IMG/VR virus record: IMGVR_UViG_3300045988_175774
Length of the DNA: 46,533 nucleotides
Strand: one strand, 5' to 3'
Source of the DNA: a virus
How positions within the stretch are numbered: position 1 is the first letter of the stretch; each line of letters opens with the position of its first letter. Positions 1,997 through 17,240 of this stretch are shown here, one piece after another. The position numbers were made by a program, and so were the translations under genes. The notes beneath the pieces are model-generated. The model did no database searches, was not told the origin of the DNA, and saw only the letters and a program-made list of their open reading frames with translations.

Positions 1997-2503
1997 TCAA
2001 TTCCAATTTTGCACGATTCTCAAAGGAGCGTTACAACAACCAGAAGCTAAAGCACTTTCCCCTCTTGTTAAAGAGGAAGAAACATCTCCATGAGCTACTA
2101 GTTTACCGCATTTTTTGCAATAGATTTCATACTTATACAGATCACGATGAGGTTTCCATATCTGCCCTTCCGCGAATCGTTTAGGATTTTTAATTCCCAT
2201 TCTTCGCATCTCCGCTTTCCAATACATATCATGACCATGAGGTTTTCCAGTATCCCATATTACAAAAGCATGAGCCAATTCATGCATTGCCGTAGTAATA
2301 ATTGCTTCTTTTGTTCCAAATTTTAATAATTTTTCAGAAAATTCAATAGATTCAATTCTCATAGTAAGATCACTTGTATGTTCAAATACAACTCGACCTA
2401 ACATAGTAACTAAATTAGGATTGATTACGATTGGACAGTAAATTGTTTTATTTCTTTCTTTCGCGATATAATTACATAAGCTAAGCATTTCTTTTTCAGT
2501 CAT
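1997..2503 (-). CDS. SprT/Wss1-like zinc metalloprotease with a C-terminal zinc ribbon (paralog 1)
   Basis: HELAHAF (HExxH) plus a downstream HGHD third ligand; YCKKCGKL...CC zinc ribbon. Paralogous to 2520..3023. Confidence 0.7.
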   Translation of the reverse strand: MTEKEMLSLCNYIAKERNKTIYCPIVINPNLVTMLGRVVFEHTSDLTMRIESIEFSEKLLKFGTKEAIITTAMHELAHAFVIWDTGKPHGHDMYWKAEMRRMGIKNPKRFAEGQIWKPHRDLYKYEIYCKKCGKLVAHGDVSSSLTRGESALASGCCNAPLRIVQNWN

Positions 2504-2519
2504 ATAAAATATACTCCTT

Positions 2520-3023
2520 TTACCAATTTTGTTGTATTTTAATAAAAGATTTACAGCATTTTGAAGAGTATAACTCTGGATATTTTGTTATATCACAAGC
2601 TTTATCTCTAGCTCCTATCAATTTTCCGCATTTCTTGCAATAAATAGTATATTTATTTATTTTTTCAGGTAATCCCTCGTAAAGCTGACCTTCCGCGATA
2701 GCCTTTGGATTAGCACCAAGTCTTTTCGCGATATCCTGCCAAATCTTATCATGTCCGTGTAATTCACCTGTTGTCCAATAAACAAAAGCGTGAGCTAATT
2801 CGTGTTTTATAGTATCCATAATTTGAGCTTCTGTTCCAAACTGAAGAAAATTTTTAGAGAACTCAATTTTCTTAATGCCGAAACCGTCTTCATATTTTAC
2901 CTGACCAAGAGTTTTAGTTAATCTTCCATTCTCTACAATAGGACAAGTAATGATAAAACCATTTTCTTTTGCTATCTTTTCACAAATTTCATTTACTTGT
3001 TTAATTGTCATTAACTGCATCAC
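2520..3023 (-). CDS. SprT/Wss1-like zinc metalloprotease with a C-terminal zinc ribbon (paralog 2)
   Basis: KHELAHAFVYW, HGHD and YCKKCGKL...CC; collinear similarity with 1997..2503 over the full length. Confidence 0.7.
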   Translation of the reverse strand: MMQLMTIKQVNEICEKIAKENGFIITCPIVENGRLTKTLGQVKYEDGFGIKKIEFSKNFLQFGTEAQIMDTIKHELAHAFVYWTTGELHGHDKIWQDIAKRLGANPKAIAEGQLYEGLPEKINKYTIYCKKCGKLIGARDKACDITKYPELYSSKCCKSFIKIQQNW

Positions 3024-3101
3024 AATCCTTTCTTTTAATATATATATTATATTATATTTTTATGAAAAAATCAATGAGAATTATCGGCGAGTAGTTGAGT
3101 A

Positions 3102-3130
3102 TTGAAAATGTATAAAAAATATGTTATAAT
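3102..3130 (+). promoter_or_regulatory. sigmaA-like promoter TTGAAA-N17-TATAAT for the plus-strand island
   Basis: ttgaaa at 3102-3107, tataat at 3125-3130, exact 17-nt spacer. Confidence 0.55.
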
Positions 3131-3162
3131 ATTTAATATAAACAAGAGAAAAGAGGGCGGAA

Positions 3163-3339
3163 TTGACAAGAGAAGAATTAAGTGCGGAATTGGGTATAAG
3201 CGAGAATAGGATATTACGTCACTGGCGGGAAGTGTGTAATAGTTATGAGCGGATTGGGATTAGATTGATTAAGATAGGAAAAGGCGAAAAGGCGGAGTAT
3301 GGTATTTTAAGAAAAGACGAGACTGTAGCTAGGTTTTAG
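3163..3339 (+). CDS. small helix-turn-helix protein (TTG start, 58 aa)
   Basis: The ORF is stop-free in a stop-rich A/G/T region. RBS aagaggg lies upstream. Translation LTREELSAELGISENRILRHWREV... is HTH-like. The ORF track missed it. Confidence 0.4.
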   Translation: MTREELSAELGISENRILRHWREVCNSYERIGIRLIKIGKGEKAEYGILRKDETVARF

Positions 3340-3349
3340 AGGAGGGTAT

Positions 3350-3553
3350 ATGGTAACAGTTGAGAATACAGACGGAACTATAAACACATATAGCAATTTT
3401 TGTTGTAATCATATAGATATAAAACAAAATAAAAGAGAAGGTTGGAGAATGTGTAAATATCTTGTTTCTGGAGAGTGCGGCAAGGAGAAAATTTTTTTAA
3501 TGAAAGACATTGGTAATAATTGTATTAGATGCCTTTCGTACGAACCAGAGTAG
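3350..3553 (+). CDS. Cys-rich zinc-ribbon small protein
   Basis: RBS ggaggg; CC..H...C..C...C..C pattern over 67 aa. Confidence 0.5.
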   Translation: MVTVENTDGTINTYSNFCCNHIDIKQNKREGWRMCKYLVSGECGKEKIFLMKDIGNNCIRCLSYEPE

Positions 3554-3866
3554 AAAGAAGAAGAAGAAGATTTTGACGCGGATGAAGCTGACTATGAAGA
3601 TCTTTAAGGTGAGAATTGCCGCATTATAAAAAATAGAGGATTTTCTTGGGAGAGAATTTTAAGATAAGAGGATATTATGACGAGAAAAGTTTAACTGTTT
3701 TGTTAAAAGACGAATTAAAAAGCTCTAATCGTTAAGAAAAAATTTAACAAAAGGTGTTGAAAAAGTGTACAAACCGATGATTTGTTGAAATTTTTAAGCA
3801 AATGTTGAAAATATTTTAAGTATAAATTTTATGTTTAAATATAAGGAGGAATATAAGGAGGAAAAT

Positions 3867-4484
3867 ATGGAAATTCAAAAAAATTCAAGACAAATACCTA
3901 GTAATAAAATTTATACTGCTAACAAGAAGTATTCAGATATTCTATATGGATATTTACAACATAATTCTCTTTTAGATAAAGAGTGTGGAATTAGGTATAT
4001 ACTTAAAAAAGATATTAGTTTTGTAAAAATTGCTAATGAATTAAAGATGCATAGGCAAACAGTTTCAAATAAATTTAAAGTTTTGATGGAACAAAATTTG
4101 ATTAGATACAATGAAGAGCTAAAAAGATATGAATTAGTTACTATTGATAAAACATTAGCAACTTTATTACCAGATGAAACAGTTAGGATTTGTTATAACA
4201 CTTTGCAAGATAGATGCTTAAGTATATTAGCTTATTTATTAAAAACTTATATTCAACATAATGAATCTTCTTGTCAAATAAATTTAGATGTTATAAAAGA
4301 ATATGTTGGAATTTGCGTTTCAAATAGAGGGTGTAATAATCAGGTTATAAAAGATAGCCTTTTAATATTACAAAAATTAGGTTTTATTCAATATCATACA
4401 GAAAGAAAACTAGATGGAGAAACAGGCGGTATAAGAACTATTTATATTTTAGATAAAGTATATAATTTTGTTACTTTTGATTAA
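3867..4484 (+). CDS. dual winged-helix DNA-binding protein (possible replication initiator or regulator)
   Basis: AGGAGG sits 7 nt before the ATG at 3867; the track start at 3831 lies within the duplicated RBS. Two wHTH-like segments are ISFVKIANELKMHRQTVSNKF and NLDVIKEYVG..GFIQY. Confidence 0.55.
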   Translation: MEIQKNSRQIPSNKIYTANKKYSDILYGYLQHNSLLDKECGIRYILKKDISFVKIANELKMHRQTVSNKFKVLMEQNLIRYNEELKRYELVTIDKTLATLLPDETVRICYNTLQDRCLSILAYLLKTYIQHNESSCQINLDVIKEYVGICVSNRGCNNQVIKDSLLILQKLGFIQYHTERKLDGETGGIRTIYILDKVYNFVTFD

Positions 4485-4518
4485 AAGATATAGTAAATAA
4501 AATACTAAGTAAAACTGC

Positions 4519-4552
4519 AAAATGTCGAAAAAGTGTAACACAATATAATAGT
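4519..4552 (+). repeat. 34-nt direct repeat, copy 1 (aaaatgtcgaaaaagtgtaacacaatataatagt)
   Basis: Identical 34-mer occurs again at 4639..4672. Confidence 0.9.
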
Positions 4553-4618
4553 AGAAGTAATTTCATTACTTCGTATTCAAGCACTTCGTGCTTTCATACT
4601 CGTAATGAAATTACTTCT
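4553..4618. other. long imperfect hairpin (17-bp outer stem plus inner 6-bp stem) lying between the 34-nt direct repeats
   Basis: agaagtaatttcattac ... gtaatgaaattacttct, with inner aagcac / gtgctt. Confidence 0.6.
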
Positions 4619-4638
4619 TAGCCGCCCGATAATTTTGT

Positions 4639-4672
4639 AAAATGTCGAAAAAGTGTAACACAATATAATAGT
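4639..4672 (+). repeat. 34-nt direct repeat, copy 2
   Basis: Identical to 4519..4552. Confidence 0.9.
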
Positions 4673-4749
4673 GGTATTAAAGTTATACCAGAAATATTAT
4701 ATTATATTATATTATATTATACATAACTATTATATAATAATAATAATAT

Positions 4750-4786
4750 AGGTAATGTATCATACCGAAGGTATGATACATTACCT
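4750..4786. other. 17-bp perfect hairpin (aggtaatgtatcatacc-gaa-ggtatgatacattacct), preceded by a (tatta)n microsatellite
   Basis: Perfect inverted repeat read directly from the sequence. Confidence 0.7.
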
Positions 4787-4899
4787 TAGTGTAAATTAAA
4801 ATGAAGAGTTTTATGCGGGGTAGGGATATTTAGTAGTTGAATCCGCTCTGTTTTAGAGGGACTCTTGTTTAATTTTAAAATGTCAAGGAACGTTTTAAA

Positions 4900-5600
4900 A
4901 AATGATTTGAAAATTTTAAGGTTTAAATAAATTAGGAAAGTTTTTTAGAAGGTATGAGAAAAAGTAAGAAAAGAAGTATAGTATACTTAGAGAATGGCAA
5001 AGAGTATTGCTGAATAATAACAAAGAGTTGGGAAGTTTTACTAAAAACGAGGTGTAGTTTTTTGGTTAGAAGAGTATGTAAGAGAGTGTTTAAATTATAA
5101 GAGAAGTATGGGAGTGCGGAGTTGAGTTTAATTAAAGTGCTTCCGCTTTTGAAATACAAGGTTAAATAAAAATTGTGGGTTACAGAATTGCTTAAATAAA
5201 ATTATTAAAATTTTGCGTGAGGAGTTTGATTTTGGAGAGAATTAAGGGTAGTTTTAATAAAATATAAGGATTGGATTAAAGGCGTGTGGGATTAAGGTAA
5301 TAAAATATTTTAGAATTAGAGAGAATTGAGGATAGGTTAATAAAAATAATAAGACTGGATAAAGAAAATTTGATGTTTAGATTAAGAGAGAGTATAAAGT
5401 TGGATTAAGAGAGAAGAAGGTTGAAGTATATAAAATAATAAGCGGAAATGAGGATTTTGAGATTGGAGTATGCGAGAGTAGAATTGGAGTGTAGAGAGGA
5501 TGAGAGTGAGGCATGAGTCTGAAAACATGGCAGAATATGTGAAAAAAGTGTGAAAAAATTGTGAAAAAAATTGTGAAAAAAATTGTGAAAAAAATTGTGA
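4900..5600 (+). other. about 700 nt non-coding purine+T tract with almost no cytosine on the plus strand
   Basis: Per-line counts give 0-6 C per 60 nt and G about 28%. Only low-complexity spurious ORFs occur on either strand. Confidence 0.8.
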
Positions 5601-5601
5601 G
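5538..5601 (+). repeat. tandem (t)tgtgaaaaaa(a) repeat, 5 copies of 12-13 nt
   Basis: gtgaaaaaagtgtgaaaaaattgtgaaaaaaattgtgaaaaaaattgtgaaaaaaattgtga. Confidence 0.9.
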
Positions 5602-5625
5602 GGGTCAGTCTCACTCTCCCCTCTC

Positions 5626-5656
5626 CCCTCCTACCTCAGAGCTCTTTATACGAGCT
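5626..5656 (-). terminator. hairpin cagagctc-tttatac-gagctctg overlapping the stop of 5646..6041
   Basis: Inverted repeat inside the only GC-rich patch of the region. Confidence 0.4.
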
Positions 5657-6041
5657 CTGAGAGGAATTTTCTAATAATTTCATCATCTGATAAAGCTTTT
5701 TCATTCTCCCGTTTTACATCTCTTTTCAGTTTATCTGTATCTACTCTTCTAACTCCAAATCTTGCCCTTGAAAGATTACCCATTTTACCAAAAGCCTCCA
5801 TAGTCTTTTCCATCTTAGTTAACTCTGTCATAAGATTCTTTCTATCCTCAGCAGATTCTTTTTTATCAATTGCCCCAAGAGCAATTCCATACGTTACAAA
5901 CGCGTCAACCAATTTGTTTCTTGCATCTACAATCGCCTTTGTGCGGTTTTCCTTGGTCTGCTCCGCTTCGATCTCAGCTTTTACCGCCTTAAGAATTTCA
6001 TCTGTTGTTTTGCCTTCAGCGATCATTTTTTTAATATCCAT
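5646..6041 (-). CDS. hypothetical protein, helical and charged
   Basis: 131-aa ORF with RBS aaaaggagaac; a TGaTATAAT extended -10 sits upstream at ~6089-6102. Confidence 0.6.
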   Translation of the reverse strand: MDIKKMIAEGKTTDEILKAVKAEIEAEQTKENRTKAIVDARNKLVDAFVTYGIALGAIDKKESAEDRKNLMTELTKMEKTMEAFGKMGNLSRARFGVRRVDTDKLKRDVKRENEKALSDDEIIRKFLSELV

Positions 6042-6641
6042 AGTATGTTCTCCTTTTGAAATGTTTATTTGTTTTTCTTTATGTATATATTATATCAAAA
6101 AATTATAGAAAATTCAAAGGGGAAGACATCTTTCTAGCTATTGTTGAGCTTAATTAGTTTCCAAAAATTTTAAATGAGATAAGGCTCGACGTAAAAATGG
6201 AAGGCGGAAAATAAAAATGGCTTTTTTTACTATTGTATCATATATTTTATTAAAAATCAAGCGGAGAGAAGTGAGGTATGCCATAATTGCGGGATTCTAG
6301 AAAGCCGAATGGAAATTCCAAACATCTAGGAAAAAAGCCCATATAGGCGATCTTTGGGGTAGGTCGGATCCGAGTCCTTTGAACTCGGACCGCTGATTAT
6401 ATCACAGCCGCCGCGTTTTGTCAATAGGCAAATTATACAAATTTTTCATTATTTTTTTAGTAATATTGCACAAATAGTCATTTTTACCAAATTTTCATTA
6501 AAAAATAAGATTTTTTTGGTAAAAATGACTAAAATAAATAAAAATGTACAAAAAAATAGCCAAAAACCGCGTAATTTTTGGCTATTTTGTATAGAATATA
6601 GAATTTTATTGAATTTTTATAAGAAATTTTGGTTATTTTGT

Positions 6642-6680
6642 ATAGAATAGTCAGAAATGTAAATTTTCTGACTATTCTAT
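6642..6680. terminator. 16-bp perfect hairpin downstream of 6706..7107 (T-run on the plus side)
   Basis: atagaatagtcagaaa-tgtaaat-tttctgactattctat. Confidence 0.45.
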
Positions 6681-6705
6681 GTAATTTTTAGTTACCTCAG
6701 ACTGC

Positions 6706-7107
6706 TTACTCCTCTACAGTTTCCTCTTCTTCTTTTGCAAGAGAAAAGTAAGGAACTCTTTTTTCAATTGTCCTGACCACTTCTTCAGATTCGACAAGCT
6801 GTTTAAGAAGAGCAGATAACTTCTGAGGAGAAAGTTTGTTCATCTCAGAGTTTTCTTTAATCATGGTTGTAACTGTAACAGGTTTACCAAATAACTCCAG
6901 AGCCACAAGAATGAGCTTTTTAATTTCCTCATTTTCTTTCTGATTTTTGGTTTTTTTACCGCTGGAAGATTTTTTATTCAACAGCTCAATTTCATGGCTG
7001 AGAAAGTTAAGTGCTTCTTCTTTTGGTTCAAAGTCACTTTCTTCCAGAAAAGCTCTAATAGTTTCAAACCAATCTTTTTTTGTCATTTTGTCTTTCATCA
7101 TATTCAT
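6706..7107 (-). CDS. hypothetical protein, family A paralog 1 (winged-helix-like core, acidic C-terminus)
   Basis: Paralog of 8408..8827 with a shared block ELFGKPVTVTTMIKEN..KLS.QKLSALLK..VVRT.EKRVPYFSLAKEEEE. RBS aaagaaagaggt. Confidence 0.65.
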   Translation of the reverse strand: MNMMKDKMTKKDWFETIRAFLEESDFEPKEEALNFLSHEIELLNKKSSSGKKTKNQKENEEIKKLILVALELFGKPVTVTTMIKENSEMNKLSPQKLSALLKQLVESEEVVRTIEKRVPYFSLAKEEEETVEE

Positions 7108-7134
7108 TACCTCTTTCTTTCTTTTGATATATTT

Positions 7135-7163
7135 ATTATAGCATACTTTTTTATTTTTGTCAA
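7135..7163 (-). promoter_or_regulatory. consensus promoter TTGACA-N17-TATAAT for 6706..7107
   Basis: plus attata at 7135-7140 and tgtcaa at 7158-7163; the promoter-plus-leader cassette is duplicated at 7417..7445. Confidence 0.65.
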
Positions 7164-7194
7164 TTACTTTTTTATTTTTTTTCTTTTCTGGTGC

Positions 7195-7389
7195 TTACTT
7201 AATATAAGCACCAGCAATAGACTTAACAGAGCCATCCGCGTTGAAAAAGATAACATTATTTTGAATAACGTTGATACCTTTATTCTTTGCAAAATTTCTG
7301 AACACAAAGTCTGTATTCCAGAGTTTAATAAAATCAGCTTTTCTCATGTTTGCAAAACCTTTTGTGTAGTTCATTGTTCTCATAGTCAA
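7195..7389 (-). CDS. small hypothetical protein (64 aa)
   Basis: Own copy of the promoter/leader cassette (leader ..tatatcaaaagaaagaaagaggtattgactATG). Confidence 0.5.
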   Translation of the reverse strand: MTMRTMNYTKGFANMRKADFIKLWNTDFVFRNFAKNKGINVIQNNVIFFNADGSVKSIAGAYIK

Positions 7390-7416
7390 TACCTCTTTCT
7401 TTCTTTTGATATATTT

Positions 7417-7445
7417 ATTATAGCATACTTTTTTGCTTTTGTCAA
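7417..7445 (-). promoter_or_regulatory. consensus promoter TTGACA-N17-TATAAT for 7195..7389 (cassette copy 2)
   Basis: plus attata at 7417-7422 and tgtcaa at 7440-7445; about 60 nt is identical to 7109-7170. Confidence 0.65.
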
Positions 7446-7452
7446 TTACTTT

Positions 7453-7758
7453 TTAATAAAAATAACTGTCTAAAATCATACTTTCTACAATAAGATTCTT
7501 ATTATCATAATAAGCAAGGGCAATAGAAGTTGCGTAAGCGTCAAGCCCTGGACTTTCAAAAATACATTCAGAAGAGACACTAAACTTATAGTTTTTTTGC
7601 TCAGGATTTTTTTCTAAGAAATCAGAAATAGCTTCACTTAAACGCTTGCCATTTTCATTCATTTCCATATAATTCTCTCTTTCGGAATCCCAAAAACCAT
7701 CTTCTTCCAAAAAAATACAAAGATTACTCATTACGTCTTCGAATAAATTTTTTGCCAT
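7453..7758 (-). CDS. hypothetical acidic protein (101 aa)
   Basis: ORF with RBS; no recognisable motif. Confidence 0.55.
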   Translation of the reverse strand: MAKNLFEDVMSNLCIFLEEDGFWDSERENYMEMNENGKRLSEAISDFLEKNPEQKNYKFSVSSECIFESPGLDAYATSIALAYYDNKNLIVESMILDSYFY

Positions 7759-8024
7759 GCTATCTACCTCTCTTGTTTTTATTTATTATTTATTTTATGT
7801 ATACATTATATCAAAAGAAAAAATAAAAGTCAACGGCATTTTGCACAAAGTATAATAAAATATTTTGTCTATTTTGACTATTGACAGGTTTAGCATTGTG
7901 CATAATAGAGAAAATTGGCGGATTTTGATATAAAATTTTGTTCATTTTACCTATTGACAGAGATTTTTGTACAAAACGGAGAATTTTGGGATAAAAAATT
8001 TTTTATTTTTGTGCATTTTTTCTC

Positions 8025-8118
8025 TTGACAAAATCGTCAGCGTGTGGTATAATGGATATTTCGGTCGCCTTGACCCAAGGCGACCCGCTATTATACCATA
8101 CTTTCGGGTGCTTGTCAA
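8025..8118. promoter_or_regulatory. element A: face-to-face consensus promoters flanking a GC hairpin
   Basis: Plus side: ttgaca 8025-30, 17-nt spacer, TGgTATAAT 8048-53. Hairpin: ggtcgcc-ttgacccaa-ggcgacc at 8063-8085. Minus side: TTGACA-N17-TGgTATAAT (plus tgtcaa 8113-18, attata 8090-95). Confidence 0.6.
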
Positions 8119-8407
8119 TAGGCAAAATAAACAAAATAAAAAATTTTTTGAGCCTTATTTTTGTTACATTTTCACAAAATTATAGACTGGGACTCTTTGT
8201 GCAACAATACTAAAATTATAAAAATTTTTTGGCTATTTTTTGTAATTTATGTGCATTGACTTTTTTGTTCTCTGGTATTTTTGAATAAAAAACATCCCTC
8301 CAGCAGCGGATTTTTTGTGCAAAAAGTAGAAAAAAAATGCATAAAAAAGGAGGACGGATTTTGTGCAATCCGCCCTCTTGACAAGGTTTATAAGTTACTT
8401 TTTAGTT

Positions 8408-8827
8408 TTACTCTTCTTTCTCAGTTTCTTCTTCTTCTTCTTTTGCAAGAGAAAAGTAAGGAACTCTTTTTTCAACTGTCCTGACTACTTTGCCCCCTTC
8501 AATCATTTTTTTCAACAGTGCAGATAACTTCTGAGAAGAAAGCTTACTCATTTCGGCGTTCTCTTTAATCATAGTTGTAACTGTAACAGGTTTACCAAAC
8601 AGCTCTAAGGCAATTTCAATAAGTTCCATAAGCTCCTCATTTTCTTTAATGTGAGCTGTTTTCTTTTTGCCTGGTGCTGAAGATTTCTTATTTAACAGTT
8701 CAATCTCGTGATTGATAAAGTCAAGTGTTTCTGTTTTCTTGTCAAAATCTTCTGTTTTTTCTACGATACCTGCCAGCAGTTTAAAAAAGTCTTTTTTTGT
8801 CATTTTGTTTGTGTTTGTCATAATCAA
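8408..8827 (-). CDS. hypothetical protein, family A paralog 2
   Basis: Paralog of 6706..7107; the 3' coding DNA is also near-identical (..ctcttcttcttttgcaagagaaaagtaaggaactctttttt..). Confidence 0.65.
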   Translation of the reverse strand: MIMTNTNKMTKKDFFKLLAGIVEKTEDFDKKTETLDFINHEIELLNKKSSAPGKKKTAHIKENEELMELIEIALELFGKPVTVTTMIKENAEMSKLSSQKLSALLKKMIEGGKVVRTVEKRVPYFSLAKEEEEETEKEE

Positions 8828-8862
8828 ATCCCCTTTCTTTCTTTAAAAATTTTTTTGGTGGC

Positions 8863-8900
8863 TTGCGGTCGGTGGTCGATTTTGCTGACCATCCGAACCG
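8863..8900 (-). other. GC-rich nested stem-loop in the 5' leader of 8408..8827
   Basis: gcggtcgg-TGGTC-gattttgc-TGACCA-tccgaaccgc lies between the promoter (8933..8961) and the RBS. Confidence 0.5.
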
Positions 8901-8932
8901 CTTGAAATTGTTTATCACTTTGTTACAATGTT

Positions 8933-8961
8933 ATTATATTACTTCTTTTTGCTCTTGTCAA
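8933..8961 (-). promoter_or_regulatory. consensus promoter TTGACA-N17-TATAAT for 8408..8827
   Basis: plus attata at 8933-38 and tgtcaa at 8956-61. Confidence 0.6.
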
Positions 8962-8969
8962 GCACTTTT

Positions 8970-9344
8970 TTATTTTTTCTTTGATGGTCTATGCTTGATT
9001 AACGAAATTGAATATTCCGCACCGCCAATTTTGAAAGTAATTTCTTTCTGCGGATTTTTGATTATCACGCTTTCAAAGTTCATTTCCTCAACTTCTTTCA
9101 AGTGACTTGCCAAAATTTCAATGATTTTGACTTTTTCCGCATCCAATTTTACCTCACGTTTTTTCGTGCTTTTTTTCTCTGGTGTACTCTGAACATAGTT
9201 CTTAATGCCTTTAGCCTTAATCTCCATTTCCGCCATTTCAAGAGCTTCCTCTTTAGTTACCGGTTCTCCGTCCGCTTCAAATTCTTTCATCAGCTTAATA
9301 GCAAGCTTTTCGATTGCATCTGCGGTCACTGTTGTTTTAGCCAT
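8970..9344 (-). CDS. hypothetical protein (124 aa)
   Basis: ORF with RBS aaaaaggatgtgatataacATG. Confidence 0.6.
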   Translation of the reverse strand: MAKTTVTADAIEKLAIKLMKEFEADGEPVTKEEALEMAEMEIKAKGIKNYVQSTPEKKSTKKREVKLDAEKVKIIEILASHLKEVEEMNFESVIIKNPQKEITFKIGGAEYSISLIKHRPSKKK

Positions 9345-9392
9345 GTTATATCACATCCTTTTTAAAATTTACTATTAACTTGTTACAATGGT

Positions 9393-9421
9393 ATTATATC
9401 GCATCTTAGCTTAAAAGTCAA
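9393..9421 (-). promoter_or_regulatory. promoter TTGACT-N17-TATAAT for 8970..9344; a ~60-nt cassette is duplicated at 10161..10219
   Basis: plus attata at 9393-98 and agtcaa at 9416-21; copy 2 has attata at 10183-88 and agtcaa at 10206-11. Confidence 0.6.
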
Positions 9422-10128
9422 GCACTTTCGTGTAATTCTTTTCTTTTTTTCTGCGGAAGTCTCCAGCATGACGGCTTAATACTTCTATCCATTTTTTTAT
9501 GCTGGTCAAAACATTTTTTCATAATTTCGATTTCAATTTTTACATCTTCTAAGCCCGTATGAGATTCTACAAAATCAATATTCTTTTTAATATATTTATA
9601 GCATACCTCAGCGTTAGTTAAAAGATTGCCTTTTTCAGACTCAAATCCGTTTTTCTCAGCAAATTTGATATAGGTGTTTGTACTTAAAATCATCTGACAA
9701 GCCATGTTCCAAATACAAAAATATTCTGTACCATAAGGGAAAAACCAGCGAATAAAACTTTTGCTATGGTATCTGATAGCATTATTCAAAGCTTTTCTAT
9801 CAAAAGCCATATTGTAAGCCCCAACTTTTTTCACATTATATTCTTTCATGTCTGTAAACATCTGTTTTCTAATATTGAAAATGCTTTTCATGGTTCTTTT
9901 CCCGCTTTTTAAATCATCCCAGTATTTCGGAATTTTTTCAGCGTAGTAGGCACTATTCATAGCTTCTTTCAAGTCGATAAACGTTTCAGCGACTACAAAG
10001 CTTCTTTCGGTGACAATGTTACCGTGTCTATTTACAATAGCATAGCCAATATCATAAGGAATTGGCTCGTTTACACTATTCGCAGTTTCTGTATCCAATA
10101 CCATGAAAAACTCTTTTCTTCTACTCAT
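9418..10128 (-). CDS. DnaQ-like DEDDh 3'-5' exonuclease
   Basis: Exo I MVLDTETAN, Exo II MAFDRKAL and Exo III ESHTGLEDV are present. Start set at ATG 10128, with RBS gaggaaa 7 nt upstream; the track start at 10143 is a TTG. Confidence 0.7.
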   Translation of the reverse strand: MSRRKEFFMVLDTETANSVNEPIPYDIGYAIVNRHGNIVTERSFVVAETFIDLKEAMNSAYYAEKIPKYWDDLKSGKRTMKSIFNIRKQMFTDMKEYNVKKVGAYNMAFDRKALNNAIRYHSKSFIRWFFPYGTEYFCIWNMACQMILSTNTYIKFAEKNGFESEKGNLLTNAEVCYKYIKKNIDFVESHTGLEDVKIEIEIMKKCFDQHKKMDRSIKPSCWRLPQKKRKELHESA

Positions 10129-10217
10129 TTTTGATTTCCTCAACTTTCATTTATTTTTTTACTATTAACTTGTTACAATGGTATTATATCGCATCCTAGC
10201 TTAAAAGTCAAGCACTT

Positions 10218-10403
10218 TCATAAAATTTTTTCAAAATCTTTTAACTGCTGACTCGCAGATAATTCTTTGATTTTATATTTATGCAATCTATTGTTTAAAC
10301 AATACTCGCACCCACCGTGGTTTCTGCAATGCACAGACACGGCTTTTGCTTTGCGGTATTCTTTTCTATGCTCTTTTCCACTTCTGATTGCTTTATCCAT
10401 CAT
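10218..10403 (-). CDS. small Cys/His-rich putative zinc-binding protein
   Basis: HCRNHGGCEYC motif in a 61-aa ORF. Confidence 0.45.
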   Translation of the reverse strand: MMDKAIRSGKEHRKEYRKAKAVSVHCRNHGGCEYCLNNRLHKYKIKELSASQQLKDFEKIL

Positions 10404-10420
10404 GTTTAACCACCTACTTT

Positions 10421-10894
10421 CTATAAGAAATTTTTTAATACTTCCATGATATTGTTTACATCAAAACTATTTTTGCCCCACTCTTTTCTATTGCGTTCCT
10501 CATCATCAAAAAGCCATCCCTTACAATCAACGACAGTACTTTTCGGTGTGCCATAGTTTACAATTTTGATTTCGTCCCATTTAATACTAGGTAAGTGTTT
10601 TTCAAGCCATGCAAGTTTTACACTTGTTACCGCTGTATTATAAGAAGCTGACCCGCTTTTACTTAACCAGCTTACAATACCAATTCTATAGCCATTAGCT
10701 TGTAACTTGTGAAGCACTCTTGCGAAAACTGAAAAATTGAAAAGTGGTTTTGCTACTTTGTATGGTGTAGTGTCTTCTTTTTCCAAATATGCTAACCAGT
10801 TTTCCACGCCGTAGAAGTTAGCAAGTGTGCCGTCCATGTCAAAATAAATAGTTTCTTTTGTGCTCATCATTTTTTTAACTGTATTATCCATCAT
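10421..10894 (-). CDS. HAD-superfamily phosphatase, resembling the 5'(3')-deoxyribonucleotidase (NT5C-like) family
   Basis: HAD motif I IYFDMDGTLANF (DxDGT); size about 157 aa. Confidence 0.65.
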   Translation of the reverse strand: MMDNTVKKMMSTKETIYFDMDGTLANFYGVENWLAYLEKEDTTPYKVAKPLFNFSVFARVLHKLQANGYRIGIVSWLSKSGSASYNTAVTSVKLAWLEKHLPSIKWDEIKIVNYGTPKSTVVDCKGWLFDDEERNRKEWGKNSFDVNNIMEVLKNFL

Positions 10895-14853: not shown

Positions 14854-15122
14854 CCTCTTTCTTTCTTAATCTTTTCGTATCTTTCTTTTGCTTCTTCTTC
14901 AATCTTCTTTTTGTTGTATACTCTAACTTTCATTCTGGTATATCCATCTCTTTTTAAACACCAACGTTCTGTTTTACGTTGTACTACTATCTTGTCGATA
15001 GCCCTTTGCTGTACCTCTTGCTTATGAGTGTTATAATATTTGATACTCTCAATTTCTAATAAAGTACTTATTGGTCTGTACTTATTGGTTACACTAAACA
15101 AAGTACATTGAATTGTTATCAT
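14844..15122 (-). CDS. small basic protein
   Basis: K/R-rich 92-aa ORF; promoter at 15148..15176. Confidence 0.5.
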   Translation of the reverse strand: MITIQCTLFSVTNKYRPISTLLEIESIKYYNTHKQEVQQRAIDKIVVQRKTERWCLKRDGYTRMKVRVYNKKKIEEEAKERYEKIKKERGWS

Positions 15123-15147
15123 CTTATCACCTCTCTTTTCAAGTATT

Positions 15148-15176
15148 ATTATACTACCTTATTATACCATTGTCAA
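15148..15176 (-). promoter_or_regulatory. consensus promoter TTGACA-N17-TATAAT for the 14844..15122 operon
   Basis: plus attata at 15148-53 and tgtcaa at 15171-76. Confidence 0.55.
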
Positions 15177-15329
15177 GCTTTTATTTACAGTATTTTTATT
15201 TATTTTAATGTATATTTACTCATGTTATTAAGACTAACAGTTAGTTTTAAATACATATTTATATCTTTTTTATAAATGGTAAAATAAAATATAATATAAA
15301 TATTATCATACTATTTTATTTAGTATTAT

Positions 15330-15585
<256 letters not shown>

Positions 15586-16240
15586 CTTAAGCTTAACCTC
15601 TCATTATAGCACCTTTAGCTCATTCTGTCAATAGACATTTTACACAATTTTTTCTTTAAAACTTTGTGCAGATTGCCCATTGACATTTCTTGTCTATTGA
15701 CATTTTGTACAAAAATCAAATTATATTTTTGTATACTTTTACCATTGACAGGGTTTGTCAATAGACATAATGTACAAAATTTTCCATGTATTTTTGTACA
15801 ATTTTACCTATTGACAAGTTCATTTTAGGAAAATATCTTTGTACATTTTTTACAAAAATTTAGCCAAAAATTTGTGCATTTTGCCTATTGACAAGCTTCT
15901 CGGAGCGTTGCGAAAGTATACGCTCCGACGATAGATGGCAAGCTACCAATAGCCAATAAAAATTCTAATCTTCTTGCTTTATTTTAGTTATTTAAAGAAT
16001 TTATTTTATTAGTTTAACTCTTTCTCCTCTTTGCTTAAAATAATGTGTTCAAAACTCTTCTGAACAAAAAGCATATCCTCTTTGGAAAAAGATTTGAAAA
16101 ATTATTTGTTAGGCGGTATCTTGTTGCTTCTTGCTCAAAAGAAATGCTCAAACTACAGACCATACTTAAACATAATGCCGGGGTATATTAAAGGATTAAA
16201 ATTTTTTACTTTTATAAAAAGATAGTGTTCTCCACAATTC

Positions 16241-16400
16241 TCTCTCCAAAAATTTTTTCAAATCTAAAAGTCTAAAAGTCTAAAAATAAAATCAAAAAAC
16301 GAGAATTAAAAATCTCTCCAAAAATTTTTTCAAATCTAAAAGTCTAAAAATAAAATCAAAAAACGAGAATTAAAAATCTCTCCAAAAAATTTTTTTAAAC
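16241..16400. repeat. tandem direct repeat of about 64-72 nt, about 2.3 copies
   Basis: tctctccaaaaattttttcaaatctaaaag(tctaaaag)tctaaaaataaaatcaaaaaacgagaattaaaaa appears twice, followed by a partial third copy. Confidence 0.85.
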
Positions 16401-16484
16401 AAATTAAAATAAAATAAAATAAAAAAGGATTTTAAAAAAATAAAAATATTTCTCATTTTTCTCTTTAAAAAACTACCCGCGATG

Positions 16485-17240
16485 TCAAGCAAGGCTCCGA
16501 AAGGCGTCTAAATTAGATCCATTAGGGATAGCAAAAATTATTTTTTTAAAAATATAATTATTAGATAATTTCATAAATATCTTTTTAACTTCATTAGGAT
16601 CTTGACCAAAAGCTCCGCATCCAAAAGCTCCTAAGATTAGAACATCAACTTTATTTTTCGCCGCAATGTCTAAAATAAAAGAAATTCTTTCTTTTAAAGC
16701 CTTAGTATTTTCTTCATCTGTTATCCCATTACGCTTAGCTTCTTTTTTATTCGGGGCTGCACAAGTGATAATATCACAATTATAAAAATCCTCAAAAAGA
16801 ACATTTGGACTATAAATTGCTCGATTCCAATATAAACCGCGATTTATTAAGTTTTTATTTTCTCCATAAAAATCTTCTCTTTGTCGTTGCAAAATATTAT
16901 AAAGAATAGATTTATGACATAAACTTTCTTCTTGAGTACTACTTCCTTTTAAAAAACCTCCGCCAGGATATTTAAAAGATGCAAAATTAAGTGCGGCAAT
17001 CTTACTATTAGGAAACTCAGATACAGCTTTTTTAATAGCATTAACAGTATCAGTTTCCCATATTTCTAAATAATTAAGATTTTTTTCATTTGTTTTATTT
17101 GTTTTATTTACAATAGAACCTGGTACGAAACCACTATAATATTTAGTCCTTGCATTACACCATGCGATTTTATCTGAATATTCTTTTTCCATTTTATAAA
17201 AATGATTTATGGCTTGAATAGCTCTTTCTTTTTTATTCAT
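16485..17240 (-). CDS. bacterial-type poly(ADP-ribose) glycohydrolase-like macrodomain (DUF2263 / TIGR02452 family)
   Basis: PARG signature GGG-X7-QEE (PGGGFLKGSSTQEES) plus the macrodomain diphosphate loop VLILGAFGCGAFGQDP. Confidence 0.7.
   Translation of the reverse strand: MNKKERAIQAINHFYKMEKEYSDKIAWCNARTKYYSGFVPGSIVNKTNKTNEKNLNYLEIWETDTVNAIKKAVSEFPNSKIAALNFASFKYPGGGFLKGSSTQEESLCHKSILYNILQRQREDFYGENKNLINRGLYWNRAIYSPNVLFEDFYNCDIITCAAPNKKEAKRNGITDEENTKALKERISFILDIAAKNKVDVLILGAFGCGAFGQDPNEVKKIFMKLSNNYIFKKIIFAIPNGSNLDAFRSLA

Follow-up and report, generated by a model that had tools for sequence, protein, structure and literature searches.

A conserved, cytosine-depleted noncoding region of a large gut phage looks like a selected transcript

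The stretch of DNA analyzed here (IMG/VR record IMGVR_UViG_3300045988_175774; 46,533 nucleotides [nt] in all, called the window below) is a segment of a large tailed phage of about 135 to 140 kb. It contains a gene-free stretch of about 1.2 kb (positions 4485 to 5645), much of which is almost devoid of cytosine on the plus strand, directly after the gene for a 205-amino-acid (aa) protein with two winged-helix domains. What is such a region for? A preliminary description of the sequence had proposed a replication origin or packaging site with its initiator or, alternatively, a long C-free RNA transcribed rightward. We found that the region looks like a selected noncoding transcript rather than a proven replication origin. 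Our favored reading, to which we assign a probability of roughly 0.4, is that the C-depleted part (the tail) is an untranslated segment of a rightward-transcribed RNA and functions through its composition. A protein that would bind repeated boxes upstream would control this transcription, and the RNA would be blind to Rho in the sense direction and prone to Rho in the antisense direction.

Composition and conservation of the tail

The region is made of two modules, a promoter/hairpin module (4519 to 4790) and the C-depleted tail (4900 to 5604, plus strand), and both are kept in about 12 lineages. The tail has 23 C in 705 nt (3.3%), together with 293 A, 183 G, and 206 T, so that its A+G content is 68% and its GC skew is +0.78. 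From 4861 to 5580, the counts of C per 60 nt are 4, 0, 4, 2, 6, 3, 0, 1, 1, 1, 3, and 2. When we ranked all 705-nt windows of the 46.5 kb by their C or G content on both strands, the tail was the lowest; the next lowest outside the region has 7.1%, and the median is 11.8%. Compared with the plus-strand late genes, which have 12.1% C, the depletion has a binomial P of 7e-17. We found such a composition in no other intergenic region of the window. The near absence of C, the G+A richness, and the extreme strand asymmetry first described are thus borne out, although the tail is better termed pyrimidine-poor and purine-rich than simply C-free.

No open reading frame (ORF) spans the region on either strand, and each plus-strand frame has 24 to 31 stops of all three types, in agreement with the earlier statement that the region has no credible ORF. 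The portal protein encoded in the window is 39% identical to its counterpart in phAss-1, a group of gut phages in which TAG is recoded to glutamine (PMC10607447). Because these distant relatives recode TAG, a recoded reading of the tail was worth checking. We rejected coding through TAG or TGA recoding, since TAA, TAG, and TGA occur in all plus-strand frames. Decayed cargo genes (the small genes that most relatives carry ahead of the tail) were also rejected as its source; in a tblastn search with 21 cargo proteins against 4485 to 5700, the best E value was 0.6. No Rfam 15 family matched anywhere in the window at the gathering score, and at E ≤ 1 there were only two chance-level matches within 3000 to 6800, both outside the region. 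The predicted fold of the tail RNA has few pairs within the tail.

The tail ends with a 12-nt tandem repeat, TGTGAAAAAAAT (5538 to 5600, plus strand), in 5.4 copies, which agrees with the tandem units first described; close relatives have 2 to 5 copies. On the minus strand, this repeat provides T-runs after a small hairpin. Inside the tail are degenerate repeat copies at 5232 to 5279 and 5316 to 5363, at an offset of 84 nt, and 5380 to 5423 contains two copies of a 23-nt unit.

We compared the composition of the tail with that of the four-fold degenerate sites of the island genes, where T is 45 to 49%, C is 6 to 9%, and G is 14 to 18%. In the tail, T is 29%, C is 3%, and G is 26%. Cytosine deamination was rejected as the cause, because T in the tail lies below its level at neutral sites and the four-fold sites of the island are not depleted of C. 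Since the tail is far from neutral sites in composition, these data point to selection on its base make-up, which is purine-rich and, above all, C-free.

The loci that we compared (the window, L013 to L020, L022, L060, and L070; about 12 lineages) were reached through homologues of the 205-aa protein, which are 35 to 78% identical to it. They share a common layout: winged-helix gene, boxes, promoter, two-tier hairpin, zero to five cargo genes, tail, GC-rich motif, C-rich segment, terminator, and convergent gene. The cargo genes are small and on the plus strand; most relatives have one to five, the window has none, and some are kept between lineages. The tails are 86 to 705 nt long, with 1 to 5% C and 64 to 73% purine. 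We found no alignable sequence and no common repeat period among the tails of these lineages, and each lineage has its own short repeats. In every tested locus of 6 to 14 kb, the 150-nt window with the lowest C content was in or beside the tail, and in each case it was on the strand that carries the winged-helix gene. The cargo operon of L013 has a terminator of its own, after which three tandem boxes and a promoter would restart transcription into the tail; the L013 tail lies between a plus-strand terminator (6806 to 6830) and promoter (6852 to 6879) on one side and a terminator (7095 to 7117) on the other. In L022 and L060, the cargo operon appears just to run on into the tail as its long untranslated end.

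Protein, boxes, promoter, and leader hairpin

The 205-aa dual winged-helix protein is encoded at 3867 to 4484 on the plus strand and has a fold like those of O/RepE-type initiators. Its AlphaFold2 model has a predicted local distance difference test (pLDDT) score of 89 and a predicted template-modeling (pTM) score of 0.83 and contains two winged-helix domains, as the preliminary description had proposed. With Foldseek, the best full-length matches in the PDB were RepE54 and Rep-DUE/iteron complexes, which were weak (template-modeling [TM] score, 0.40 to 0.47; E, 1e-3 to 1e-2). Predicted viral structures gave better matches, one of them annotated "Replication protein O" (TM score, 0.67; E, 1e-5) and another annotated "Replication initiator protein." All 23 family members matched a PHROG family labeled ScpB, 14 of the 23 matched the PHROG family "replication initiation O-like," and several matched further PHROG families annotated "replication initiation protein." Sequence profiles from Pfam, NCBIfam, and the PDB gave only MarR/Crp/ArsR-type helix-turn-helix domains, below cutoffs, and the protein had no match to the Pfam Rep_3 or phage O family.

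The boxes are asymmetric direct repeats of 16 to 17 nt (for example, GTTAAAAAAGTGTACA) that occur on the plus strand only and in the island only. Each locus has two to five of them after the winged-helix gene and often one more about 100 nt upstream of it. A box consists of a conserved half, TGTTAAAA, and a lineage-specific half, which is GTGTACA, GTATACC, TTTGGTG, or TTTCTGAT depending on the clade of the protein. The recognition-helix residues RQT.S are invariant and correspond to the conserved half, and the 205-aa protein is the probable binder of the boxes. Their pattern fits a monomer that would use its two domains to read an asymmetric site, in the manner of iteron-binding initiators. 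In the window, two boxes 120 nt apart follow the gene and one precedes it; the spacings in relatives are 18, 27 to 28, or 32 to 34 nt. The upstream copy, GTTGAAAAAGTGTACA (3756 to 3771, plus strand), lies about 100 nt 5′ of the gene and is a putative autoregulatory site, and L016 and L020 have boxes at the equivalent position.

The last box coincides with the −35 element of a promoter. We found TTGTTA-16-TATAAT in L013 and L019 and a perfect TATAAT 16 nt past the last box in eight lineages. In the window, the corresponding element is a 34-nt direct repeat that, as first noted, occurs in two identical copies around a 66-nt hairpin (4519 to 4552 and 4639 to 4672, plus strand). Its first copy includes the box GTCGAAAAAGTGTAACA (4524 to 4540) and a TATAAT (4544 to 4549); the repeat is homologous to the promoter of the relatives, with a degenerate −35 element (ATGTCG). 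The 120-nt unit formed by the 34-nt repeat and the hairpin is present in two or three copies in close relatives.

The 66-nt hairpin (4553 to 4618, plus strand) has two tiers: perfect 17-bp outer arms (4553 to 4569 and 4602 to 4618), an internal loop, a 6-bp inner stem, and a TTC loop closed by a C-G pair. Ten such leader hairpins share one fold with differing outer stems and have z-scores of −4.4 to −11.2. The outer stems are wholly different between lineages yet perfectly paired, and the L011 hairpin has a compensatory C-G to T-A change. Either RNA or single-stranded DNA may be the active form of the leader hairpin. Its apex carries the heptamer GCTTCGC in most lineages, always on the plus strand, and this heptamer is nearly absent elsewhere in the fetched loci (L013, 5733; L014, 5697; L017, 4793 and 4863; L019, 1948; L020, 1297; L022, 1543 and 1548). 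The complement of this heptamer, GCGAAGC, forms an unusually stable DNA mini-hairpin that has been reported at some origins.

Several further features stand around these elements. A sigma-70-type promoter (3102 to 3130, plus strand; near-consensus TTGAAA-17-TATAAT with an upstream TG) heads the plus-strand island. A+T microsatellites follow the second 34-nt repeat (4694 to 4748), namely, (ATATT)5.6 at 4694 to 4721, which is the (tatta)n tract noted earlier, and (ATA)5 at 4734 to 4748. Their copy number differs among close relatives, and L017 and L018 have similar AT tracts after the promoter. A second hairpin (4750 to 4786), also already noted, has perfect 17-bp arms (4750 to 4766 and 4770 to 4786) and a 3-nt loop. 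Among the window, L001, L002, L005 to L008, L010, and L011, the window, L006, and L001 have the loop GAA and the six others have TTC, with unchanged stems. The two loops are exact reverse complements, which is a flip-flop inversion of the palindrome. The conserved motif AAGGAACG-N-AAAAATGAttTGAAAAT (4885 to 4914, plus strand) lies between cargo genes in L014 and L015 and is probably a relic of a cargo operon that was lost in the lineage of the window.

Two observations on the relatives concern this module. L070 (QZLZ01000049.1, reverse-complemented, about 6500 to 8360) is a mosaic: its winged-helix allele is a distant one (about 59% identical to P0085), it has five boxes of its own type (TGTTAAAAAATTTCTGATA), and the leader hairpin is the point where these meet a downstream module that hardly differs from that of the window. 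The protein and its boxes thus appear to travel together, with the hairpin as the apparent recombination joint. Past the leader hairpin, the first cargo gene is drawn from a single family of 110 to 170 aa that is absent from the lineage of the window (L013, 5800 to 6261; L014, 5770 to 6111; L018, 6585 to 6947; L019, 2016 to 2348; L020, 1355 to 1861; L060, about 2636 to 3005). The L014, L018, and L019 members match mutually by BLASTP, and those of L013, L020, and L060 were placed in the family solely by the C-terminal motif (R/K)S(Q/D/E)L(K/R/L)T(L/I).

A transcribed tail and its rivals

According to the favored reading, the region would be the noncoding distal half of a conserved plus-strand control island. 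The dual winged-helix protein would bind its asymmetric 16- to 17-nt boxes, the last of which would supply the −35 element of a TATAAT promoter firing rightward. The transcript would begin with the very stable two-tier hairpin, continue through cargo genes in most relatives and then through the C-depleted tail and a short C-rich segment, and end at a bidirectional terminator facing the converging early genes. The tail would act via its composition and not its sequence. A rightward RNA without C would form no G-C pairs and offer no C-rich loading site for Rho, so that polymerase could cross hundreds of untranslated bases to reach the junction. The leftward RNA of the tail (26% C, 3% G, 68% pyrimidine) would be an ideal Rho substrate, so that polymerase reading on out of the converging operon would be halted before it ran antisense to the regulator gene.

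The promoter, the covarying hairpin, the co-oriented cargo genes, and the downstream terminator argue that the tail would be transcribed rightward. Of the proposals in the preliminary description, the rightward C-free RNA is better supported than the origin: these four elements agree with it, and what did not hold is the idea of a structured or sponge RNA, as the tail is unstructured and the sponge motifs tested are not enriched. We found that the minus-strand RNA of 4900 to 5604 has the character of a rut region, being untranslated, with few predicted pairs and 26% C against 3.3% G, a C/G ratio of about 8 over hundreds of nucleotides. The plus strand just past the tail (5605 to 5645) is likewise C-rich and G-poor, so that a short segment of the rightward RNA has the composition of a rut site. 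Known rut sites differ in being about 80 nt long. We know of no description of a conserved 100- to 700-nt rut-like block of this kind.

The C-rich, G-poor segment (5605 to 5645, plus strand) starts abruptly after the tail. Every relative has an equivalent of 50 to 80 nt, preceded in several by a GC-rich motif, GGTGGTGG..GGACC. We rejected a Chi-like reading of GGTGGTGG; there is a single copy per locus, in a fixed place, and none in the window, so that it is no genome-wide signal. A small conserved peptide at the C-rich 3′ end was rejected as well, since the similarity shifts frames and has no start codons; the conservation is therefore at the nucleotide level. RNAalifold found no conserved RNA structure in the 3′ segment. 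An inverted repeat encloses the tandem repeat, with GAGAGTGAG (5502 to 5510, plus strand) pairing with CTCACTCTC (5610 to 5618). A minus-strand terminator-like site (5614 to 5597) and a hairpin, CAGAGCTC/GAGCTCTG (5637 to 5659), mark the convergent junction. The hairpin overlaps the stop codon of the convergent 131-aa gene (5646 to 6041, minus strand), whose homologues lie beside the tail in all relatives. The favored reading accounts for the strand of the tail, its place at the only convergent junction of the window, its turnover in sequence and length, and its nonneutral composition.

A parallel among regulator-controlled noncoding RNAs of phages is the aimR-aimP-aimX system of Bacillus phages, in which the gene of a DNA-binding regulator is likewise followed, in a set-apart island, by sites driving a downstream noncoding transcript. 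The systems share no homology, and aimX is short and of unbiased composition, whereas the tail is conserved in composition only.

Several points weigh against the favored reading. The promoter and terminator calls are consensus matches alone, and at the −35 hexamer of the window (ATGTCG) the scanning tool called no promoter. A usable −10 element is present for only about half of the boxes, so that binding sites or iterons describe the boxes better than promoters do; this would also fit an origin. In the nearest cultured relatives, Enterococcus phages of 134 to 142 kb whose winged-helix protein is 30% identical, the homologous gene stands alone on the opposite strand without any tail. The reading depends on transcription of the region and on a host that contains Rho, both of which we infer. 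A role as an insulator would by itself leave three things unexplained: the dedicated promoter of L013, the conserved motif before the C-rich segment, and the 705-nt length of the tail in this phage.

The strongest rival is a replication origin, which we consider unlikely. The protein would be an O/RepE-type origin binder, the boxes would be iterons, and the AT microsatellites would be the unwinding element. The promoter within the iterons would transcribe into the tail, where an RNA hybrid on the pyrimidine-rich template, or open structure-free strands, would prime or license replication. Transcript-primed origins have precedents in T4 oriF/oriG, ColE1, pAMbeta1, and lactococcal phage c2. The locus resembles iteron origins (F RepE, RK2 TrfA, and lambda O/ori-lambda) in its protein of about 200 aa with two winged-helix domains, in asymmetric direct repeats of about 17 bp beside its gene (two to five copies directly after it), one of which overlaps a promoter, and in a nearby AT-rich tract. 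The structural and O-like PHROG matches of the protein also count in favor of an origin. The variable half of the box tracks the protein clade, as expected for a RepE-like monomer that has two winged helices. In the window, L017, and L018, the boxes are followed by AT tracts, and the hairpin apex GCTTCGC is position-specific.

Other results speak against an origin here. The protein lacks the Pfam matches of known initiators, only two boxes follow its gene in the window, and these are 120 nt apart. We found no DnaA boxes (TTATCCACA, at most one mismatch) in 3000 to 7800, and their count over the whole window equals chance. The cumulative GC skew, which had been proposed as a check, has its minimum near 18 kb, away from the region; the divergent switch of gene orientation is there too (both near 17.9 kb), whereas the region is at a convergent junction. 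In relatives, cargo genes fill 0.5 to 2 kb between the boxes and the tail. The free energy of an RNA hybrid on the tail is also ordinary (given below). To our knowledge, no known iteron origin has a cytosine-free tail. The first proposal of an origin with its initiator has support that is real yet indirect.

A stronger origin candidate lies elsewhere in the window. The intergenic block at 15122 to 16485 is AT-rich and contains a stretch of about 420 nt that is almost purely A+T, with runs of (TTA)n and (TAT)n (15160 to 15580), five or six CTATTGACA motifs interleaved with TGTACAAAA, repeated TGTACA motifs, and tandem repeats of 64 to 65 nt (15677 to 15816 and 16241 to 16426). It is close to the GC-skew minimum and the divergent switch, and both this minimum and the block are 10 to 13 kb from the region. 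This block is a better candidate for a classical origin than the region studied here, or it may be a cluster of early promoters.

We regard a trans-acting long noncoding RNA as a distinctly unlikely explanation. An abundant, unstructured purine-rich RNA would titrate a factor of the host or the phage that recognizes such low-complexity RNA, or its C-rich 3′ segment would seed on G-rich ribosome-binding sites, which are the targets of C-rich small RNAs in Firmicutes. The L013 tail is compatible with this, being a discrete promoter-tail-terminator unit with three tandem boxes, as are the lineage-specific short repeats and the C-rich segment that every lineage has directly 5′ of the terminator. 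The count of ATAAAAT is 16, with 2.9 expected, and TTGAG occurs in 9 of 10 tails, but such k-mer excess may reflect mere clustering of A and T. GGA, Shine-Dalgarno (SD)-like, and ARN motifs are not above the level expected from composition in most tails. The window tail has 17 GGA against 19.5 expected and 19 SD-like 4-mers against 18.3 expected, and we found an excess solely in L016 (GGA) and L018 (SD-like). A sponge for CsrA, ribosomes, or Hfq was rejected because these motifs are not enriched. The C-rich segment has no complementary target of at least 11 nt in the window, the 3′ segment lacks a conserved structure, and, as noted above, the region has no Rfam match even at E ≤ 1. Because the repeat motifs differ by lineage, a common partner is hard to name.

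That the tail has no function is, in our estimate, improbable. It would then be low-complexity DNA that arose through slippage and duplication of purine-rich seeds (ribosome-binding sites, for example) in a gap that tolerates such growth at a recombination boundary, and its base make-up would merely exaggerate the general purine loading of sense strands. G already exceeds C on the sense strand of all window genes. Tail length ranges widely, and among nine near-identical relatives the 12-, 22-, and 120-nt units vary in copy number. Over 1997 to 10894, in a comparison of the window with L005 to L011, divergence at four-fold sites is 0 to 3% in the left-flank genes (1997 to 4484) and 4%, 10%, 15%, and 13% with distance on the right; the tail itself has 3.6%. 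This sharp step identifies the noncoding region as a recombination boundary, and L070, which joins another protein allele to the same downstream module, agrees with this. Polymorphism was accordingly rejected as a gauge of constraint, since the region is a mosaic boundary. Against a lack of function, the tail keeps its position and strand in about 12 lineages despite total sequence turnover, four-fold sites on the strand of the tail have a very different composition, and no other intergenic region of the window resembles it. Substitutions in the tail among the nine close relatives comprise 40 A/G, 11 C/T, and 8 transversions; C/T polymorphisms do arise, yet C stays at 3%.

We give a low probability to the proposal that exclusion of C creates a zone in which protein-controlled transcription leaves an RNA:DNA hybrid that would persist, together with a displaced strand free of structure, priming or licensing replication or recombination. 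As in R-loop origins (ColE1 RNA II, T4 oriF/oriG, pAMbeta1, and the phage c2 ori), a promoter at an initiator or activator would lead into a noncoding zone with a purine- and G-rich nontemplate strand. In relatives, however, cargo genes lie between promoter and tail. By a nearest-neighbor estimate that compares RNA:DNA with DNA:DNA, the hybrid-minus-duplex energy of the tail is −0.02 kcal/step, compared with −0.02 to +0.05 in ordinary sense strands; in the reverse orientation it is +0.146 kcal/step, which is far worse. In thermodynamic terms, an R-loop at the tail would be unexceptional. Mammalian immunoglobulin class-switch regions, which are transcribed, are similar in being noncoding on the kilobase scale, with a G-rich, C-poor nontemplate strand and degenerate repeats of fast turnover. 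Their biology is unrelated, the phage element is rich in A/T and has far fewer clusters of G, and the energy calculation does not support an R-loop. If such a zone did exist, it would be a phage counterpart of R-loop origins and switch regions, recognizable by base make-up alone and so missed by sequence-based searches.

A DNA-level protein-binding array, either a pac site or a centromere-like partition site of lineage-specific short repeats, is very improbable: such repeats are typical of centromeres, the neighboring protein falls in a PHROG family annotated ScpB, and three IMG/VR contigs end inside the region (at 4615, 4718, and 5538), but eight ENA contigs of 82 to 142 kb cross it and have their own ends at unrelated positions, the three ends lie exactly at variable-copy repeats in one sample with three co-occurring strains (which is how assembly breaks usually arise), the terminase genes are 14 kb away, there is no partition NTPase nearby, and neither pac nor partition function requires strand asymmetry. 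The packaging site first proposed is thus not supported. The three contigs (L001, L002, and L003; sample 3300045988; 80 to 97 kb) are each about 95% identical to the window and end at 4718 (AT microsatellite), 4615 (120-nt unit), and 5538 (12-nt repeat), respectively; these ends look like assembly breaks from co-occurring strains with different repeat copy numbers.

Phage setting and significance of the locus

In the window, small early genes occupy the minus strand from 1 to 17.8 kb, and the plus strand from 17.9 kb on encodes a sigma factor, terminase (large subunit gene, 20.3 to 22.1 kb), portal, and structural proteins. The only plus-strand island within the minus-strand block (about 3100 to 5645) contains the region. 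One contig from a human-gut metagenome, 135,576 bp long, is identical across the region, and seven more contigs of 39 to 142 kb have the same 205-aa protein and the same gene-free gap. The gut ENA assembly ERZ28657934 has a contig identical to the window at this locus. We found no nucleotide similarity to cultured phages and no tRNA genes in the 46.5-kb window. The late genes (17957 to 42490) are uninterrupted when read with the standard code, although the phAss-1 group, which is related, recodes TAG. For distant relatives of the phage, the host has been guessed to be Clostridia (PMC10607447). One match in GTDB, a 139.6-kb contig, was binned with an uncultured Bacilli bacterium.

Directly left of the island are two tandem SprT-like genes and a gene for an AAA ATPase. 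We rejected this ATPase as a helicase loader, as it is a classic AAA protein of the Cdc48/FtsH type. A TIGR02452-family protein is encoded at 16485 to 17240 (E, 7e-53), and close relatives encode a NADAR-domain protein (L005, 2854 to 3285). Both families are tied to ADP-ribose removal, which suggests a counter-defense function for these proteins. A second gene-free gap of about 660 nt (6042 to 6705) separates paralogous minus-strand genes of 131 and 133 aa (the latter at 6706 to 7107). On its minus strand is a promoter of the perfect form TTGACA-17-TATAAT with a TG (6424 to 6396), and the gap also contains a 20-bp hairpin (6638 to 6684).

Taken singly, the parts of the locus are of known kinds, namely, a regulator or initiator accompanied by direct-repeat sites, a leader hairpin, a noncoding transcript, and convergent terminators. 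In Rfam and the literature searched, we found nothing like a long C-excluded noncoding block conserved only in composition. If the tail is selected for composition alone, it would be a phage noncoding element that is conserved without conserved sequence or structure. Such elements would be missed by homology and covariance searches and could be found by simple scans of strand composition. The locus offers a compact, testable system (protein, bipartite boxes, covarying hairpin, exchangeable cargo, and tail) in an uncultured, widespread family of gut phages. It could decide whether this protein family consists of origin binders or transcription factors and whether Rho or R-loops shape the intergenic DNA of phages.

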